This document shows positions 231 to 60,914 of a DNA stretch of 64,000 bases, piece by piece; position 1 is the first letter of the stretch; every line of letters begins with the position of its first letter. The stretch comes from Parcubacteria group bacterium (GTDB lineage: Bacteria; Patescibacteriota; Minisyncoccia; Moranbacterales; GCA-2747515): assembly GCA_041660065.1 (NCBI GenBank), contig JBAZXC010000006.1, positions 4,984-68,983 of the forward strand. Reading direction: 5' to 3'. Position numbers and translations under genes: made by a program. The notes under the pieces are model-generated. The model searched no databases. It was not told the DNA's origin and worked only from the letters and a program-made list of their open reading frames with translations.

Positions 231-462
231 AAACTTCCCTCGGTATTATCCTAACATGTGACAGGTTATGTCACAATAGGACTCCACCGATATAAGTCGA
301 TTTCTCATATATGATCGCTCATATACGCCGCCGTGTATGATGTCTTTTTCCTCGGGTTCAAACTGTACAAAAGTCAAAAGTTCATAATATTATAAAGTCC
401 ATAAAAAGTTTGGCATTCCAAAAATTTATAAACTTTAAAACTTTCTACTTTATAACTACTGT
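1..462 (-). mobile_element. Group I-type intron (partial, continues past window start) interrupting the 23S rRNA at the site homologous to E. coli 2593, which is also the I-CreI homing site
   Basis: In rRNA sense the sequence reads GAGCTGGGTTCAAACCGT up to the base at + position 463. It then departs from the universally conserved CGTGAGACAGTTCGGTCCC tract (ACAGTAGTTATAAAG...). The inserted stretch contains an I-CreI-like ORF. Exact splice junctions and the P1-P10 core are not resolved by eye. Confidence 0.6.
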
Positions 463-509
463 ACGGTTTGAACCCAGCTCGCGTACCACTTTAAACGGCG
501 AACAGCCGT

Positions 510-567
<58 letters not shown>

Positions 568-598
568 ACTCCGTCGATGTGAACTCTTGGGAGTGATA

Positions 599-629
<31 letters not shown>

Positions 630-789
630 ATGATCTTCCACACTCCTACAAGTGATGGTCGGTTCACTAACTTCTACTTTCGTAACTGAGCGACTTGCTT
701 GTCTTTCAGTAAAGCTGGTTTATGCGTTTGCACTATCGGCCCGATGTCCATCCGGACCTAACCAACCTTTGTAAACGCCTCCGTTACAT

Positions 790-821
<32 letters not shown>

Positions 822-1331
822 ACCAGGCACTGTTCCTGCACCGGTAGCTATATTCAACACGAGTAGTAAATTTAGTAGTACTTTTTAATCATCAGACGAG
901 TCTTATAAAATAAAATTTTATAAGCAGTTAGTGAATTCTTTTAAGTGAAAATTTTCCACGTCAAAGATCCCTCCGTACAAAACATTCTAAAAAACGCTTT
1001 GTTTTACGAAGGGCTTCACTACTCGCCTGTTGATCATATGTACCTTTGAATTTACACTCTGTAAAATACACCTAACGGTGCAAGGTTAGAATCAAAACTT
1101 CAGCAGGGTGGTATTCCACTGTTGACTCCACCGCTCCCTAAAGAGCAGCTTCAAAGTCTCCCACCTATTCTCGGCAACTAAAACTCTAATTCAATGCCAA
1201 GCTGTAGTAAAGCTCCACGGGGTCTTTTCGTCTAGCTGTAGGTAGGGGGCATCTTTACCCCCATTGCAATTTCACCGAGCACCTGGTTGAGACAGTTCCC
1301 ATCTCGTTACACCTTTCATGCGGGTCGGAAT

Positions 1332-1363
<32 letters not shown>

Positions 1364-2809
1364 GATTATAGTTATCGCCGACGTTCACTGGCGCTTCGGG
1401 GATCCGCGTAAACTTCTCCCGTTAACGTTCCAGCACTGGTCAGGTGTCACCCCCTATACATCCTCTTACGAGTTAGCAGAGAGTTGTGTTTTTGGTAAAC
1501 AGTCGAATGGGCACTTTAGCTTCGTCCAGCACCTATTTCAAAAATGATCGTCAAAATTTTTAACATTCATGAGCGATAGCGACTGCATCTTTTATCACTA
1601 TCAAATCTCTATGATCATCTCTAAAATAGGTGCTGGAAAGACATTTAGCGAACGTACGTCTAGCTTTTTTGCCGAGTTCCTTAACCAGGTCTCACTCATT
1701 CATCTTAGGCTACTCGCCCTATCTACCTGTGTCGGTTTACGGTACGGGTGTGTATATATTGAAGCTTAGAAGCTTTTCCTGGTACCCTGCTCACTACTAT
1801 TAATTCCTCCGAAGAGAAACGACTGTCCATATCTCGGATTATTGTATGGCGGATTTGCCTACCATACATCCTCAATACGTCCACATCAATCCAATAAGAT
1901 GCAGTAGCTACAAGAATACGTCACTCCATCGCATATATACACAGTGCAGGAATATTAACCTGCTGTCCATCGACTACGCCTTTCAGCCTCGCCTTAGGAC
2001 CGACTAACCCTGGGATGATTGCCATTGCCCAGGAAACCTTAGATTTTCGATGTGCACGGATCTCACGTGCATTGCGGTTACTCATTCCAGCATTCTCACT
2101 TCCTTGCGTTCCACCGGTGGTCACCCATCCGGCTTCGGCACACAAGGAACGCTCTCCTACCACTTGTAGATAAATCTACAAATCCGCATCTTCGGTATTA
2201 TACTTGAGCCCCGTTACATTTTCGGCGCAAGATCTCTAAACTAGTGAGCTATTACGCTTTCTTTAAAGGATGGCTGCTTCTAAGCCAACCTCCTAGGTGT
2301 CTGAGAAATCTCACTTCCTTTTCCACTGAGTATAAATTTTGGGACCTTAGATTGCGATCTGGGCTTTTTCCCTTTTGAACTACGAGCTTAGCCCCGTAGT
2401 TCTGACTGCCGCTGTACGATCATGAGCATTCGGAGTTTGGTTGAGCGCCCTACCTTGCGGCGGGAACTCATTCAGTAGCTCTACCTCCCATGATTAATTA
2501 AAGCGACGCTAGCCCTAAAGCTATTTCGGAGAGAACCAGCTATTGCCGAGCTCGATTGGAATTTCTCCTCTACGCACAAGTCATCCCCTGATGTTGCACA
2601 GTCAGTGGGTTCGGGCCTCCCACAACTTTTACATTGTGTTCACCCTGCTCATGCGTAGCTCGCCCGGTTTCGGGTCTAGTTCCTATGACATATTCGCCTG
2701 TTACAGCTCGCTTTCACTATGCATCGGTTACAGAGTAACTTATGCAAGCCATAGAAAACTAACTCGCTGGATCGTTCTACAAAAAGCACGCAGTCACCCC
2801 TCACCCAAA

Positions 2810-3070
2810 TTACTCTAAACTTTCTTTGACATGTTTTATCAATTGATATTTTGCCTTACCATTATGCTTCAAACGATATTCTCTCGTCCGTGCGGCACTG
2901 AGCGTTATCCACGACTCATAATAAACAATTTTCCAATGATGTGATTTTGTTGATCTGTTTTGACCACTGTTATGTGAATCAAAACGCTTTTTCAAATCAC
3001 TTGTACATCCGACGTAGAAAACTTCTCTATCATCAGTTGCTTGCAAAGCATAAACATAATGCATACGCAT
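2810..3070 (-). CDS. GIY-YIG domain protein, YhbQ/UPF0213-like, 86 aa, encoded inside the 23S helix-25 IVS
   Basis: MRMHYVYALQATDDREVFYVGCTSDLKKRFDSHNSGQNRSTKSHHWKIVYYESWITLSAARTREYRLKHNGKAKYQLIKH. GIY (YVYAL), YIG (FYVGCT) and R..EHN.G motifs are present, with a C-terminal REY..K block like YhbQ/YazA. Same strand as the rRNA. Confidence 0.65.
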   Translation of the reverse strand: MRMHYVYALQATDDREVFYVGCTSDLKKRFDSHNSGQNRSTKSHHWKIVYYESWITLSAARTREYRLKHNGKAKYQLIKHVKESLE

Positions 3071-3089
3071 ATATTTATACAGTTAAAAT
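2812..3089 (-). other. Intervening sequence (IVS) inserted in the loop of 23S helix 25 and closed by a 15-bp extended helix. Almost its whole length is an ORF.
   Basis: In rRNA sense ...GGAGCCCCTCACCCAAATT is the revcomp of 3090..3104. A 278-nt insert follows. AATTTGGGTGAGGGGTGACTGCGT (revcomp of 2797..2811 onward) then resumes the conserved GUGACUGCG of helix 25. The two arms are perfectly complementary. Too short for a group I intron; the position matches the classic RNase III-excised IVS site of Salmonella/Leptospira. Confidence 0.6.
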
Positions 3090-3159
3090 AATTTGGGTGA
3101 GGGGCTCCTACTCTTTGTTAGCGTATAGTTTCAGTTCTATTTCACCTCCCTCTACGGGA

Positions 3160-3201
<42 letters not shown>

Positions 3202-4110
3202 TGAGACAATATTTAGTCTTGGAAGTTAGTGCTCCCGGATTCAGACGGGGTTTCTCCGGCCCCGCCCTACTTGAGAATAAACTCACCTATTATTTTTTCT
3301 TTTCGTGTACAGGACTTTTACCTTTTATAGTCACACTTTCCAGAGTATTCCACTAAGAAAAAATTATTGGCCCCGCTCTAAGCGAGTCCGCTCATCTCGC
3401 AACCCCGTTCCTAATAAAAGAAACGGTTTAGACTGTTCCGCTTTCGCTCGCCACTACTGACGGAATCTCATATTGATTTATATTCCTCCTGGTACTAAGA
3501 TGTTTCAATTCCCAGGGTTTGCTTTCATAACCTATGAATTCAGTTATGAATTTCCACTTGCGTGGAAGGATTGCTCCATTCGGACATCTCCGGTTCACAG
3601 CTTGTTTGGTAGCTCCCCGAAGCTTTTCGCACCCAACTACGTCCTTCATCGCTCGTCTCAGCCAAGGCATCCACTATACGCCCTTTGTAACCTCTTTCTT
3701 TTATTTCATCAAAATCTATAAAGAATTGACAATTAAGAGAAACTTAACTGCAATTTTTATATCATTCAACAAAATTTAATGAGTGTATTGTTCATTTGAT
3801 CTTTTGGGTCAAATGAAATTGCTTAACCTATTTGTTGCTTTCTTCTGATATGACCACACATGTGTTCCGCAACAAATATGCGCGTCATTCAAAAATTTAT
3901 ATGCAGTTGTGAAAGTTCACACGTGCCTTGCCGTAGCTCACAAAAGCGACAGTAGGTTCTGCGGAAACAAGTAAATCTCTTTCACCATGTTTCCGCACAA
4001 CATTCTTTCATGTTTCAAACAAACAAAAAACGAGACATGTGCCTATATGTATTCTCGCTTGCGTCGCTCTTTCTCCGGCCGCACTTGACGTCCTCAGAGC
4101 AGTACTACCT

Positions 4111-4138
4111 ACTATAGCAAAGCCGAAAAATTTGTCAA
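4111..4138 (-). promoter_or_regulatory. Candidate sigma70-type promoter for the 23S rRNA transcript
   Basis: Minus strand reads TTGACA (4138..4133), a 16-nt spacer, then TATAGT (4116..4111). A second TTGACA lies ~22 nt further upstream. The 23S 5' end is ~410 nt downstream. Confidence 0.4.
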
Positions 4139-4296
4139 GTCTTCTTTATTTGTCAAACTGATGATATGCACAGGTTATTCACACTGTACCATTCAGTACA
4201 GTGCACGGCACTGTATTTGGTGCAATATAAGCACTGTGTTTTATTAGAAATTAGGGTGTGGAATGGTAGGTGGTAGACGTATGGATGGTAGGCTGT

Positions 4297-4345
4297 GGAA
4301 ATAAAAAACCAGTCATAGTATCCAACTATGACTGGGACGTTTTTT
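4297..4345 (-). terminator. Rho-independent terminator closing the pyrE-pyrF-small ORF transcript
   Basis: CCAGTCATAGT / ACTATGACTGG stem (4309..4336), followed on the minus strand by TTTTTTATTTCC. An A-tract/T-tract on both sides makes it bidirectional-looking. Confidence 0.6.
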
Positions 4346-4357
4346 CATTCAAAATAA

Positions 4358-4516
4358 CTATAGTTGTTCAACTGCATTTTGCAAATATTTTTTATATGCT
4401 TCGATGTGTACGCAATCATCATCTAAACATTGTTTACGTTTGCATCTCTTGCATTCTGCAGGCATTTCAACTTTCTTTGCACTGCTCTGATGCTGCTTTT
4501 TCTGACTTTGTACCAT
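4358..4516 (-). CDS. Small Lys- and Cys-rich protein, 52 aa, with C-x2-C-x4-C-x4-C; co-transcribed downstream of pyrF
   Basis: ATG at 4516 preceded by GGAGGTGG at a 5-nt spacing. Protein: MVQSQKKQHQSSAKKVEMPAECKRCKRKQCLDDDCVHIEAYKKYLQNAVEQL. The stop lies 21 nt before the terminator hairpin. The six-frame track gives a longer TTG-initiated version (4358..4543). Confidence 0.45.
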   Translation of the reverse strand: MVQSQKKQHQSSAKKVEMPAECKRCKRKQCLDDDCVHIEAYKKYLQNAVEQL

Positions 4517-4546
4517 GTACCACCTCCGATCTGAAAAAATCAAATT

Positions 4547-5458
4547 TTATGAAACTGTTTTTATAGCGCGTATTTGGTCACACAAAATTTGCGACTTTTT
4601 GCCAGATGCCTCTGCATAATCATCACCAGAGCTGGCAAAAATAATATCGGAGCTTGAATTGATCGCGATCGATCCGGGACCGGCATAAGCCGCTTTTATC
4701 GTTTCTTCCACAAAACCGCCTTGCGTACCAACACCGGGAATCAGAAACCACAGACCACTGCCAACGATCTGCCGACATTTCGACAAATGTTCGGAAAAAA
4801 TTTCTCCAGAACCTTTGAAGGTTTCGTATGCAGCTGCCATGACAAGTCCGGCATTTTCATTCACGCCGATCTCCCATGCCCACCGCAAAATCGTTTTGGC
4901 AATGAATTCCCAATATTGTCGCCCATCAGCAAGCAATACATCCTGGACTTCCCGCGCCTCTGGATTACTTGTGTAACAAAGTCCCACAATCGCTCGTCCC
5001 GGATGTGCAGGATCAAATAACGGCTTCATACAACTGCTACCCATATACGGCGAGAAATTCATCCCATCTACGCCATCGATCTCAAAGTGCGCAATACGAT
5101 AACGTTCTTGTGTTCTACCGATATCACCTCGTTTACAATCCAGGAAAACCGGAATATCGGGATAGAATTTGTGAATATAGCTCACGATTTTTTGGAGAGC
5201 TTTATCACCACCGCGAAATGCCTCATAATGCGCCTTCTGCAGTTTGAACATTGATGCGAATGGAGCGGTTGAATCTACAATATCAATCATCCACTGCGCG
5301 ATCGCCTTCCAGTCAGACGAAATCCAAAACTTCTTTCTGAGACAATGCGGCAACTTTTCTGGTAACGGATCCAGACCAACACATACAAGAGAGTTTATCT
5401 CCAATTGTCTCCTTGCAAGTTTTGCTCGAAATCCTTCTTCTTTTGCGCTTTCCACCAT
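4547..5458 (-). CDS. pyrF: Orotidine-5'-phosphate decarboxylase, long (type 2) form
   Basis: VCVGLDP, FLDCKRGDIG and LIPGVGTQGG motifs; 303 aa. Confidence 0.8.
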   Translation of the reverse strand: MVESAKEEGFRAKLARRQLEINSLVCVGLDPLPEKLPHCLRKKFWISSDWKAIAQWMIDIVDSTAPFASMFKLQKAHYEAFRGGDKALQKIVSYIHKFYPDIPVFLDCKRGDIGRTQERYRIAHFEIDGVDGMNFSPYMGSSCMKPLFDPAHPGRAIVGLCYTSNPEAREVQDVLLADGRQYWEFIAKTILRWAWEIGVNENAGLVMAAAYETFKGSGEIFSEHLSKCRQIVGSGLWFLIPGVGTQGGFVEETIKAAYAGPGSIAINSSSDIIFASSGDDYAEASGKKSQILCDQIRAIKTVS

Positions 5459-11669: not shown

Positions 11670-11743
11670 GTTCTGGTAGCTCAATTGGATAGAGCGTCTG
11701 GTTTCGGCCCAGGAGGTTAGAGGTTCAAGTCCTCTCCAGAACA
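11670..11743 (+). tRNA. tRNA-Arg (anticodon UCG)
   Basis: Hand-folded cloverleaf: acceptor GTTCTGG/CCAGAAC (7 bp, perfect), D-stem GCTC/GAGC, anticodon stem TCTGG/CCAGG, loop TTTCGGC (U33, anticodon TCG), T-stem AGAGG/CCTCT with a TTCAAGT loop. Confidence 0.8.
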
Positions 11744-59723: not shown

Positions 59724-60914
59724 TTATTTGATGATCTTTGTTACAACACCAGCACCAACTGTTCGTCCACCTTCGCGGATTGCAAATCGCATTCCATCTT
59801 CCATTGCAACCTCCGCACCAAGATTTACAGCCAATGTAACAGTATCTCCAGGCATTACCATTTCCGTGCCTTCCGGAAGGATCACCTCACCAGTCACATC
59901 CGTTGTGCGGATATAGAACTGTGGTTTGTATCCCTTGAAAAACGGCGTATGGCGTCCACCCTCTTCTTTTGTCAAAATATATACTTCACATTCAAACTCC
60001 GTATGAGGCTTGATACTGCCAACCTTTGCCAATACCTGTCCGCGCTCAACATCTTCTTTCTTGGTGCTACGCAACAATACACCTGCATTGTCTCCTGCCT
60101 CACCATGATCAAGTGATTTGTTAAACATTTCGATACCTGTCACAACGGTCTTTTGCGTCGGACGAAGTCCCACGATTTCAACTTCAGCGCCTACATTGAT
60201 CTGTCCGCGTTCGATGCGACCTGTTACTACAGTACCGCGACCTTCAATCGAGAAGATGTCCTCGATCGGCATAAGGAAGTCCTTATCCATATCACGCTCC
60301 GGTTGTGGGATCTTTTCATCAAGTGCAGCAACGAGATCAAGCATTGGTTTTGCAGCCTCATCATCCAAGCTTTTTGATTCAAGTGCTTTGGTCGCACTGC
60401 CGCGAATCACAGCGGCATTGTCTCCGTCAAACTCATACTTCGTCAAAAGTTCACGTACCTCTGCCTCAACAAGCTCAATAAGTTCTGCATCATCCACCAT
60501 GTCAACCTTATTGATAAACACAACGATCTCCGGTACACCAACTTGACGTGCAAGCAAGATGTGTTCACGCGTCTGTGGCATCGGTCCATCTGTCGCACTT
60601 ACCACCAAAATCGCACCGTCCATCTGTGCAGCACCGGTAATCATGTTTTTGATATAATCAGCATGTCCCGGACAATCCACATGAGCATAATGTCGCTTAT
60701 CTGACTCATATTCACAGTGCGCAGTCGCAATCGAGATGCCACGCTCACGCTCTTCCGGCGCCTTATCAATTTCATCTACACCTCTTTCCTTTGCAAAACC
60801 TTTCATCGAAAGCACATGCAAAAGAGCAGCAGTAGTTGTTGTCTTACCATGATCAACGTGACCAATCGTTCCCACATTCACATGTGGTTTGCTTCGATCA
60901 AATACTTCAGCCAT
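59724..60914 (-). CDS. tuf: Elongation factor Tu
   Basis: [21 protein letters not shown]; 396 aa. Confidence 0.97.

Follow-up and report, generated by a model that had tools for sequence, protein, structure and literature searches.

A GIY-YIG nuclease reading frame between hairpin arms at the tip of 23S rRNA helix 25 in a Parcubacteria group bacterium, and its relatives in other bacteria

We analysed 64,000 nucleotides of a contig from a Parcubacteria group bacterium, a member of the candidate phyla radiation (CPR) (JBAZXC010000006.1, positions 4,984 to 68,983 of the forward strand, assembly GCA_041660065.1); this whole stretch is referred to as the window. It contains a complete 23S rRNA gene in which the tip of helix 25 is replaced by an insert, consisting of an open reading frame (ORF) for a small protein of the GIY-YIG nuclease family that is nested in a long hairpin stem and runs along the rRNA sense strand. 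This element, its protein and its relatives in other bacteria are the subject of the present report.

The insert, its closing stem and its protein

Alignment to Rfam RF02541 places the insert, as a single uninterrupted insertion, between model positions 583 and 584, in the loop of helix 25, and blastn against E. coli rrl puts its two 23S flanks at E. coli positions ~544 and ~549. An earlier reading of the letters alone (below, the sequence-only reading) had located it at this helix tip and had described perfectly complementary 15-nt arms around it. Both statements are correct: the 15-mer CCCCTCACCCAAATT occurs exactly at 2797-2811 (plus strand) and at 3090-3104 (minus strand), 278 nt separating the copies, and its only other match in the 64 kb, with three mismatches, is at chance level. 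Sequence outside the ORF amounts to ~20-45 nt of the insert (Table 1). The host 23S is 89.9% identical to that of a Candidatus Moraniibacteriota metagenome-assembled genome (MAG) of the CPR, locus L008, which is also the source of the closest protein (81%) and carries its element at the same site.

When the minus-strand RNA from 2780 to 3125 is folded with RNAfold, a stem of ~25 bp closes the insert as expected from the letters, 3105-3080 pairing with 2796-2821 over 23 bp, a one-base bulge and a further 2 bp. The minimum free energy (MFE) of this fold is -112 kcal/mol (z = -7.1 against dinucleotide shuffles). Covariation was assessed in 27 helix 25 elements, whose arms were aligned in register with the conserved host flanks and joined by an artificial GAAA linker into a 23-bp stem. 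Standard pairs fill 96.9% of the 621 stem cells, changes on both sides are found at 20 of the 23 pairs (111 cells), and none of 500 shuffles attained any of five covariation measures. Sliding the partner by 1-3 columns lowered pairing to 34-48%; this control is meaningful because the register was taken from the host flanks, not from the structure. The cells outside Watson-Crick pairing comprise 65 G-U pairs and 19 others, ten of the latter at the innermost pair. Since G-U is tolerated only in the RNA of this strand, its complement being C-A, the pattern points to selection that acts on the stem as RNA of the sense strand, not solely on a palindrome in the DNA. Coding also constrains the inner third of the 3' arm.

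Table 1. Features of the 23S rRNA gene and of its helix 25 insert, in window coordinates
Feature	Position	Strand	Basis
Host 23S rRNA gene, complete	401-3697	minus	Rfam RF02541, 2171 bits, model positions 1-2925
Entire insert (arms and ORF), in place of the helix 25 tip	2797-3104 (308 nt)	minus	Rfam alignment; ends are an exact 15-nt inverted repeat
5' arm of the closing stem, rRNA sense (GCCCCUCACCCAAAUUAUUUUAAC...), a terminal inverted repeat of the element	3080-3105	minus	RNAfold; covariation; arm consensus common to other rRNA sites
3' arm of the closing stem (...GUUUAGAGUAAUUUGGGUGAGGGGU), holding the ORF stop codon and last three codons	2796-2821	minus	RNAfold; covariation; ORF end at 2810
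GIY-YIG nuclease ORF, 86 aa (ATG 3070) or 84 aa (ATG 3064)	2810-3070	minus	Pfam PF01541; invariant residues; dN/dS; AlphaFold; fold matches
Short A/U-rich leader from 5' arm to start codon, without Shine-Dalgarno motif	3071-3079	minus	Sequence; Shine-Dalgarno statistics of relatives and of long window ORFs

The assignment of the 86-aa ORF to the GIY-YIG family, first made from its motifs, is borne out by Pfam, as the protein matches PF01541 along the entire profile, from position 1 to 78 of 78 (E=5.8e-13; 49.4 bits, the cut-off being 22.6). At E<=1 the Pfam scan returned GIY-YIG, T5orf172, DUF123 and one spurious family. The 23S_rRNA_IVP (S23p) protein, PF05635, was considered and rejected: it gave no Pfam match at E<=1, and the structural model has an alpha/beta GIY-YIG fold. 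A search of 5.8 billion proteins yielded 11 relatives of 84-86 aa and 58-79% identity, all starting at the residue that corresponds to Met3 of the window ORF; the true product may thus be the 84-aa form that begins at ATG 3064.

Across these 12 sequences Y7, Y19, G21, R29, N34 and E64 are invariant and H33 is at least 90% conserved. Positions of the type Y/Y/G/R/H/E make up the GIY-YIG catalytic set, and in the window protein they align with the same residues of the structures 1ZG2 and 1YWL. Slx1-like members are not expected to have an equivalent of the Asn90 found in the UvrC/I-TevI lineage (PMC1564403). The ratio of nonsynonymous to synonymous substitution rates (dN/dS; Nei-Gojobori, ten ungapped homologues) is 0.07-0.33 where dS is unsaturated, and 53, 33 and 79 of 83 columns vary at codon positions 1, 2 and 3, respectively. 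With its full-length domain, intact catalytic set and purifying selection, the ORF probably encodes an active nuclease.

The AlphaFold model (pLDDT, predicted local distance difference test, 92.8) consists of the 78-residue domain and one C-terminal helix. In a Foldseek search of the PDB, Slx1 nuclease domains superimpose on it with a TM-score of ~0.7 and a root-mean-square deviation of 2.1-2.8 A over ~73 residues, and the top 13 matches are all Slx1, UPF0213 (the two NMR structures 1ZG2 and 1YWL) or At-HIGLE. A sequence profile search of the PDB gave only 1ZG2 (E=6e-7), 1YWL and Slx1, identity to the two UPF0213 structures being ~28-29%. The sequence-only reading had compared the protein with YhbQ and YazA. 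As far as likeness goes the comparison stands, UPF0213 and Slx1 being the closest solved relatives; orthology does not, since no NCBIfam model matches the ORF at E<=1, and the protein is therefore not an ortholog of either. To judge by these matches, YhbQ-type is correct as the name of the lineage, of which the ORF represents a related subfamily. A description of YhbQ function was not found in the searchable literature, whose coverage is incomplete.

An exhaustive profile search collected 716 cluster representatives at E<=1e-10, mostly of 80-110 aa; several relatives among the matches are 210-500 aa long. At two loci (L062:4001-4762 and L063:4001-4951) the GIY-YIG domain continues in frame into a C-terminal region resembling a prepilin-type methylation and transmembrane segment (...GFTLIEVLV / GFTMAELLV...), which may reflect read-through into an adjacent pilin-like gene. 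A phage or defence origin was considered and found no support: PHROGs returned only a generic 'endonuclease' family (E=8e-6) and PADLOC nothing meaningful, 2.9 million viral contigs gave one weak match and 72,556 plasmids none.

No promoter- or terminator-like site beyond chance was detected in the window element or just upstream of it. As the element has no promoter of its own, transcription together with the rRNA is the simplest reading. Signals for translation differ between hosts. A Shine-Dalgarno (SD) core lies 4-12 nt upstream of the initiation codon in 24 of 40 non-CPR rRNA-borne copies, as against 10.7% at random positions, and in none of 7 CPR-clade copies. Among window ORFs of at least 200 aa the core is present at this distance in ~12%, which is background, and their leaders are A/U-rich like that of the element; the CPR organism of the window seems to make little use of SD-led initiation. 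The ORF bears whichever initiation signal its host uses, and this argues that it is translated.

Distribution, sites and terminal repeats of the family

A scan of one genome per GTDB species (~186,000 species) identified 333 loci encoding relatives, in the CPR and at least eight other phyla. Eighty of these loci (L-numbered) were mapped onto rRNA references and provide the site counts given below; about 50 of them are in rRNA genes. About 45 lie at the tip of 23S helix 25, seven at the tip of helix 68 (E. coli ~1865-1876), one at helix 45 (L083) and one at helix 63 (~1702-1772); four more, from three alphaproteobacterial genomes, lie at 16S helix 6 (68-100). Helices 25 and 45, at which the sequence-only reading had proposed a survey of other CPR 23S genes for ORFs, are both occupied. 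Every rRNA-borne ORF is on the rRNA-sense strand. All six homologue contigs scanned against Rfam have the ORF inside the 23S gene, on the sense strand and at the same offset, and L007 was placed at helix 25 by blastn.

Hosts within the CPR include Moraniibacteriota and Saccharibacteria. Gammaproteobacterial hosts include Methylotuvimicrobium sp. KM1 and Methylomicrobium sp. wino1, both with complete genomes, Alteromonadaceae and Chromatiaceae; among Alphaproteobacteria there are Rhodospira trueperi, Pararhizobium and Aurantimonas; further carriers were found in Desulfobacterota, Nitrospirales, Planctomycetota, Cloacimonadota, SAR324 and the Firmicute Tindallia. Often all recovered rrn copies of a genome are filled (L016-18, L022-24, L029-30, L045/47). 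In the Chromatiaceae MAG JACKMX01, helix 25 of two rrn operons holds different lineages (L020 and L042), one as a compact insert of 291 nt and the other as a nested insert of 484 nt. Some assignments may reflect mis-binning: the 'Micavibrio' contig L009 has a CPR-like 23S that is 88.5% identical to that of the window, and the short contigs L032, L033 and L080, labelled Desulfuromonadales, Anaerolineales and Patescibacteria, encode nearly identical helix 68 proteins.

In a neighbour-joining (NJ) tree of the ~80-residue cores, calculated without support values, the helix 25 proteins of Moraniibacteriota, that of the window included, nest within a clade formed by helix 25 proteins from Gammaproteobacteria and Nitrospirales. 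Proteins of planctomycetes group together whether they come from helix 25, 63 or 68, and the 16S helix 6 group of Alphaproteobacteria has the helix 25 protein of Rhodospira as its sister. Together with the patchy spread over phyla (333 of ~186,000 species) this tree indicates that elements have passed from phylum to phylum and have occasionally moved to another site within a host lineage. Strict vertical descent does not account for the pattern, nor does homing that is strictly site-specific.

The arms had been taken by the sequence-only reading as an extension of host helix 25. This part has to be revised, for they are the terminal inverted repeats of the element itself. They are ~20-25 nt long in the family, with a consensus of about CCCCGCcACUAAAUcaCUuU and its complement, and in RNA form the arm consensus, ~CCCCGC(C/A)(A/C)CUAAAU(C/G)(A/G)CU(C/U)U plus complement, is common to elements at 23S helices 25, 45, 63 and 68 and at 16S helix 6. 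At these five sites the host sequences are unrelated to each other. The window arms are a variant, CCCCUCACCCAAAUU, shared with the Moraniibacteriota relatives. Where the ORF sits at another site, the empty helix 25 tips are short UUCG-capped hairpins, e.g. GGAGCC-GGCC-UUCG-GGCU-GGUGAC; helix 25 of E. coli reads GGGAGCC-UCUUUAUG-GGGUGACU. It is the recurrence of one consensus at other rRNA helices, together with these short empty hairpins, that identifies the arms as element-borne. In 572 kb of loci the arm motif, in a strict form, was counted 83 times, compared with ~5 times in shuffles. Upon insertion the native hairpin loses its distal 10-22 nt to the element, and no target duplication is visible at the rRNA sites.

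Inserts with the same arms but without the ORF were found as well, one of 195 nt at helix 25 of L025 and one of 212 nt at helix 68 of L016. In two loci such a stem-loop shares a gene with an ORF-bearing element. L083 carries an 88-nt ORF-less insert at helix 25, whose arms nearly match those of the ORF-bearing helix 45 element of the same 23S, and L040 a 72-nt stem-loop at helix 45, whose arms (CCCCGCCACUAAAUCG...) match those of the helix 63 ORF element of the same gene. The 16S gene of L016, an Alteromonadaceae MAG, has a further ORF-less insert at 1490-1620, with arm motif CCCAGCACCUAAAU, in a region that by eye corresponds approximately to helix 10 (flank ACCAAAGGGG).

Some 23S genes harbour a second GIY-YIG copy at helix 68, intact in L021, degenerate in L014 and truncated in L031. 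Others have nested helix 25 inserts. In Methylotuvimicrobium sp. KM1 (L015:3847-4369) the order is arm - 62 nt - arm' - ORF - arm - 71 nt - arm', and the same arrangement, with segments of ~60 and ~70 nt, is present in L016, L020, L026, L028, L029 and L041. These nested inserts can be folded in two ways, either as two flanking hairpins or as an outer and an inner duplex of 20-24 bp.

More distant relatives (40-50% identity) fall into several groups that extend beyond rRNA. Armed intergenic copies, matching no known RNA family in Rfam, occur in the CPR and Bdellovibrionales, and in them a promoter-like TTGAC...TATAAT arrangement overlaps the 5' arm: an upstream pentamer, the 17-nt arm and TATAAT or TATCAT form a promoter-like unit for the ORF. 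In L069, L085, L087, L075 and L084 a TTGAC pentamer (TTTAC in L075) adjoins each of the two arms, both times in direct orientation, and in L085 the downstream pentamer opens a TTGACT-N17-TATAAT promoter. Either the element seems to have been inserted at a -35 box, duplicating 5 bp, or TTGAC belongs to its ends.

A Candidatus Saccharibacteria MAG (L078:3940-4584) has an armed element at the position of the P3 hairpin of RNase P RNA. It is flanked as GGUCGGUCG[arm-ORF-arm]AGGAAAGUCCGGGC (5' side ...GGUCG), the ORF spans 4001-4249, and the RF00010 match at 4227-4584 abuts the 3' arm; if the arms are cut there, the RNase P RNA would be in two pieces. Other relatives adjoin tRNA genes. A clade without long arms (MWYFYILQS...), mostly from Uhrbacteria and other CPR, lies ~150-200 nt downstream of tRNA-Trp(CCA) (L036, L050, L055, L061, L064, L066, L073, L081); its position seems fixed and the gene is perhaps domesticated. 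In L051 (3910-4320) the ORF has the intact tRNA-Glu on one side and, on the other, a 28-nt duplicate of that tRNA's 5' part, and in L079 (4001-4325) it ends 1 nt before tRNA-Cys.

A proposed mechanism and its alternatives

We are highly confident that the window insert is a hairpin-armed GIY-YIG element under selection and that it belongs to a horizontally spreading family. The suggestion of the sequence-only reading that the insert is mobile or selfish is supported by the patchy distribution across phyla, the several insertion sites and the ORF-less derivatives. Most likely it is an intervening sequence (IVS) of the RNase III type that is at the same time an autonomous hairpin element encoding an active structure-specific nuclease.

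A mechanism may be proposed as follows, for an element that takes the place of the tip of an rRNA hairpin exposed at the surface. The element, lying on the same strand and having no promoter of its own, would be transcribed within the pre-23S rRNA. Its arms form a long perfect double-stranded RNA stem, as the covariation shows, with G-U wobbles that agree with RNA of the sense strand. By analogy with classical IVSs of helices 25 and 45, RNase III would cut this stem, giving a functional 23S rRNA in two pieces (~0.6 kb and ~2.4 kb) and a freed RNA of ~0.28 kb. Either the freed RNA or the precursor may then be translated into active nuclease, as purifying selection, the intact catalytic set and the host-matched initiation signals suggest. 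The nuclease could break empty or hairpin-forming target DNA, and recombination with an rDNA copy that bears the element would repair the breaks; the nearly universal conservation of the rRNA flanks would supply homology for this even after transfer between phyla. Loss of the ORF leaves short stem-loops with the same arms, ordinary-looking IVSs that are seen in several genomes. The Slx1-like fold and the lack of a DNA-binding domain favour recognition of hairpin- or cruciform-prone DNA, a point on which the model is speculation. To the full chain of RNase III excision, translation and nuclease-driven maintenance we lean only slightly.

Several points weigh against this mechanism. Excision, fragmentation, translation and nuclease activity of the element are all things that we infer. 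Replacement of a helix tip without target-site duplication fits recombination and leaves no direct trace of a nuclease break, and the protein has no DNA-binding domain with which to find targets. A signature of an RNase III gene was not found in the 64-kb window, which is uninformative and yet no support. In or beside the stem lie the stop codon and, among relatives, also some of the SD sequence; in Coxiella, the ORF of the IVS is probably not expressed, its SD sequence being removed by RNase III (PMC4990558). As to spread, the NJ tree, with ~80 residues and no support values, is weak evidence, and some MAG contigs may be mis-binned.

The insert might instead be a retained expansion segment, hairpin and ORF staying uncut in the mature 23S as a 300-nt extension of helix 25 and the ORF being translated, if at all, from precursor or readthrough transcripts. 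Helix 25 does tolerate variation in length, and the eukaryotic expansion segment ES7 arises there; besides, no RNase III gene was seen in the window, and sequence does not prove cleavage. However, a perfect double-stranded RNA of ~25 bp is a canonical RNase III substrate, and what covariation preserves is a long uninterrupted duplex, not merely a folded domain, nested elements even keeping two duplexes. All experimentally studied stem-closed inserts at helices 25 and 45 are excised (PMC2672173, PMC4990558). We consider retention improbable.

The protein might also serve its host as a YhbQ-like enzyme of DNA repair or structure resolution, the element being immobile and the hairpin only a shelter through which expression is tied to the synthesis of rRNA. 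In favour of this, purifying selection is strong, the closest relatives by fold are cellular structure-specific nucleases, inheritance looks vertical within Moraniibacteriota (the window, L008, L010 and L011 share the site, in 23S genes 82-90% identical), and the related arm-less clade is fixed downstream of tRNA-Trp. Such domestication is hard to reconcile with the very patchy distribution (333 of ~186,000 species, in many phyla), with several sites, second copies and ORF-less derivatives, or with a single MAG whose two rrn operons hold different lineages at one site (L020, L042). Selection itself does not decide, as active selfish nuclease genes are under purifying selection too. A host-serving, immobile nuclease therefore has little likelihood in our estimation.

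Classical homing is the third alternative. Here the protein would recognise the empty helix 25 rDNA by sequence, in the manner of I-TevI, and the arms would merely render the insert harmless. GIY-YIG is a known fold of homing endonucleases, all recovered rrn copies are often filled, and the helix 25 lineage is large and faithful to its site. Yet the 84-aa protein is a catalytic domain only, without the linker and DNA-binding domain of the I-TevI type; Foldseek gives Slx1 and UPF0213 and no homing enzymes; and close relatives with the same arms reside in unrelated sequences (helices 25, 63 and 68, 16S helix 6, RNase P RNA P3 and intergenic sites). Sequence-specific homing looks less likely than structure-selective cleavage, and as an account of the whole element it is quite unlikely.

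A self-splicing group I or II intron with an endonuclease ORF, after whose removal the 23S would be religated, is refuted at the sequence level and has a negligible chance: although ORF-bearing 23S insertions of the CPR are mostly group I introns (PMC11270868), no Rfam intron family matches at the gathering threshold or, with permissive filters, at E<=10, the ~20-45 nt outside the ORF are too few to hold a ribozyme, the two ends simply pair into a long duplex, and the GIY-YIG ORFs of Tsurumaki et al. are all in non-intron inserts (PMC11270868). The sequence-only reading, which had argued against a group I intron, was right in this respect, as the insert matches no Rfam family at all at E<=10. 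An artefact, either chimeric assembly, to which rRNA regions of metagenomic origin are prone, or a chance ORF in a structured spacer, is likewise refuted and hardly conceivable, given the same architecture in dozens of independent assemblies, finished chromosomes (NZ_CP173170.1, CP024202.1) among them, the full-length Pfam match, the high-confidence model, a dN/dS well below 1 and a covarying stem.

Known systems and the origin of intervening sequences

Stem-closed IVSs at helices 25 and 45 are cut by RNase III, according to Burgin 1990 and others as cited in PMC4990558, and to PMC2672173. The element agrees with these classical RNase III-excised IVSs (Salmonella helices 25 and 45; Coxiella and Leptospira helix 45) in its sites, helix 45 being used by the relatives L083 and, in ORF-less form, L040. 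It also agrees in having a long stem of terminal inverted repeats that replaces the helix tip (28 bp in Coxiella, PMC4990558), in the lack of a ribozyme and in sporadic distribution; some classical IVSs have an ORF in the loop too. They differ in content, being either ORF-less and ~80-110 nt long (PMC2672173) or provided with an ORF for the S23p/23S_rRNA_IVP four-helix bundle, whereas the element carries a GIY-YIG nuclease under purifying selection. The S23p ORF of the Coxiella IVS is decaying and probably untranslated (PMC4990558). Classical IVSs are cleaved by RNase III; for the GIY-YIG family such cleavage is proposed by analogy.

Inserts of this kind have been counted before. Tsurumaki et al. 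2024 reported GIY-YIG ORFs in non-intron insertions of CPR rRNA genes, 15 in 16S and 15 in 23S, judged them to be sparse, recent and not spread by homing, and stated that the frequently used short-insert sites 23IS2 and 23IS4 coincide with known IVS sites (PMC11270868); they cite Brown et al. 2015 for GIY-YIG inserts in CPR rRNA. The window element shares with their class the host group, the PF01541 domain and the absence of intron structure, and it is almost certainly an instance of it. The phenomenon in the window is therefore not without precedent, the word 'unusual' in the sequence-only reading was too strong, and the wider interest lies in the family. Their survey gives counts, without the arms, the Slx1-like fold or the ORF-less derivatives with the same arms, and to its hosts we add Gammaproteobacteria, Alphaproteobacteria, Desulfobacterota, Planctomycetota, Nitrospirota, Cloacimonadota and Firmicutes. 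In the searchable literature, of incomplete coverage, we found no description of the arms, of occurrence outside the CPR, of the Slx1-like fold, of ORF-less derivatives at IVS sites or of the RNase P case. While the kind of insert is already known from the CPR, the family-level features (arms, spread, ORF-less forms) thus appear undescribed.

Among nuclease genes in rRNA, the archaeal introns with ORFs for LAGLIDADG homing endonucleases, e.g. I-DmoI and I-PorI, are bulge-helix-bulge introns. Like the element, they bear a nuclease gene, are not self-splicing and are removed by a host RNA-processing enzyme at a helix formed by the insert ends (removal of the element being presumed). In contrast, they are cut by the tRNA splicing endonuclease and their exons are ligated; the element has a plain duplex, presumably cut by RNase III, with no ligation expected, and encodes a nuclease of another family.

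By sequence and fold, the best matches of the protein are Slx1 and UPF0213 (YhbQ, YazA, BH0048, EF2693), the latter single-domain proteins of ~85-100 aa like the product of the element. Prokaryotic Slx1-like proteins have been described as the GIY-YIG type in its minimal form (PMC1564403). The YhbQ-type genes of cells are ordinary genes of the chromosome, whereas those of the element subfamily sit in hairpin arms inside stable-RNA genes; Slx1 requires Slx4 and has a RING/zinc domain, both missing from the element protein. Slx1 is described as cutting flaps, junctions and stem-loops (PMC6902002, PMC8287910). With I-TevI, I-BmoI and Seg-type enzymes the protein shares the catalytic fold and residues (Tyr, Tyr, Arg, His, Glu), and the element shares selfish insertion into conserved genes. 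Those enzymes, of ~245 aa altogether, have in addition a linker and, at the C-terminus, a DNA-binding domain, whereas the element protein is the catalytic domain only; they belong to the UvrC-like lineage with its extra Asn (PMC1564403) and reside in group I introns or free-standing in phage genomes.

Small insertion sequences and miniature inverted-repeat transposable elements (MITEs) offer another likeness, namely conserved terminal inverted repeats, ORF-bearing and ORF-less copies with the same ends in one genome and, at four or five intergenic copies, a possible 5-bp flanking direct repeat (TTGAC/TTTAC). Unlike them, the element has no transposase domain recognised by Pfam, and its rRNA copies replace the helix tip without duplication. 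To our knowledge GIY-YIG proteins do not act as bacterial transposases.

The origin and spread of rRNA IVSs have been open since their discovery. A study of Coxiella lists a 'remnant of a transposition' and a 'mobile element whose ORF encoded a mobility function' among untested ideas (PMC4990558). The GIY-YIG family is a concrete candidate source, because a selected nuclease gene lies between arms of the IVS type and ORF-less stem-loops with the same arms occur at classical IVS sites in the same genomes. Tentatively, one may go further and regard hairpin-armed GIY-YIG units as the autonomous parents of bacterial rRNA IVSs in general. They would then form a pan-bacterial mobile family at hairpin tips of stable-RNA genes (23S, 16S, RNase P RNA), made harmless by host RNase III cutting the arms and spread by an Slx1-like nuclease acting on hairpin or cruciform DNA, and the short IVSs without an ORF, known since 1990, would be what is left of them after decay, comparable to MITEs. 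We hold this generalisation to be possible but rather doubtful. The question is testable in the cultured carriers Methylotuvimicrobium sp. KM1, Methylomicrobium sp. wino1, Rhodospira trueperi ATCC 700224 and Lacimicrobium alkaliphilum.

There are practical aspects as well. GIY-YIG inserts lengthen rRNA and would fragment it, create ORF calls within rRNA genes and disturb binning and phylogeny based on rRNA. Few apparently complete nucleases that are linked with a defined nucleic-acid structure are as small as the 84-aa enzyme, which could interest enzymologists.

As regards the rest of the window, a tblastn search with the whole family as query recovered only the element itself; a weak match at 60051-60209 is spurious, being antisense to the EF-Tu gene (59724-60914, minus strand). 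No 16S or 5S rRNA gene was detected anywhere in the 64 kb, and the 23S gene is thus unlinked; the sole tRNA detected is at 11670-11743. The same 23S gene contains a second insert, of ~230 nt and without an ORF (845-1080, minus strand), at the tip of helix 79, between E. coli 23S positions ~2211 and ~2226. The possibility that it is a decayed copy of the element was rejected, as neither a remnant of the GIY-YIG protein nor the arm motif of the helix 25 element was found in it; none of its ORFs exceeds 36 aa. It folds as one long irregular hairpin, with an MFE of -104 kcal/mol (z = -10.2).

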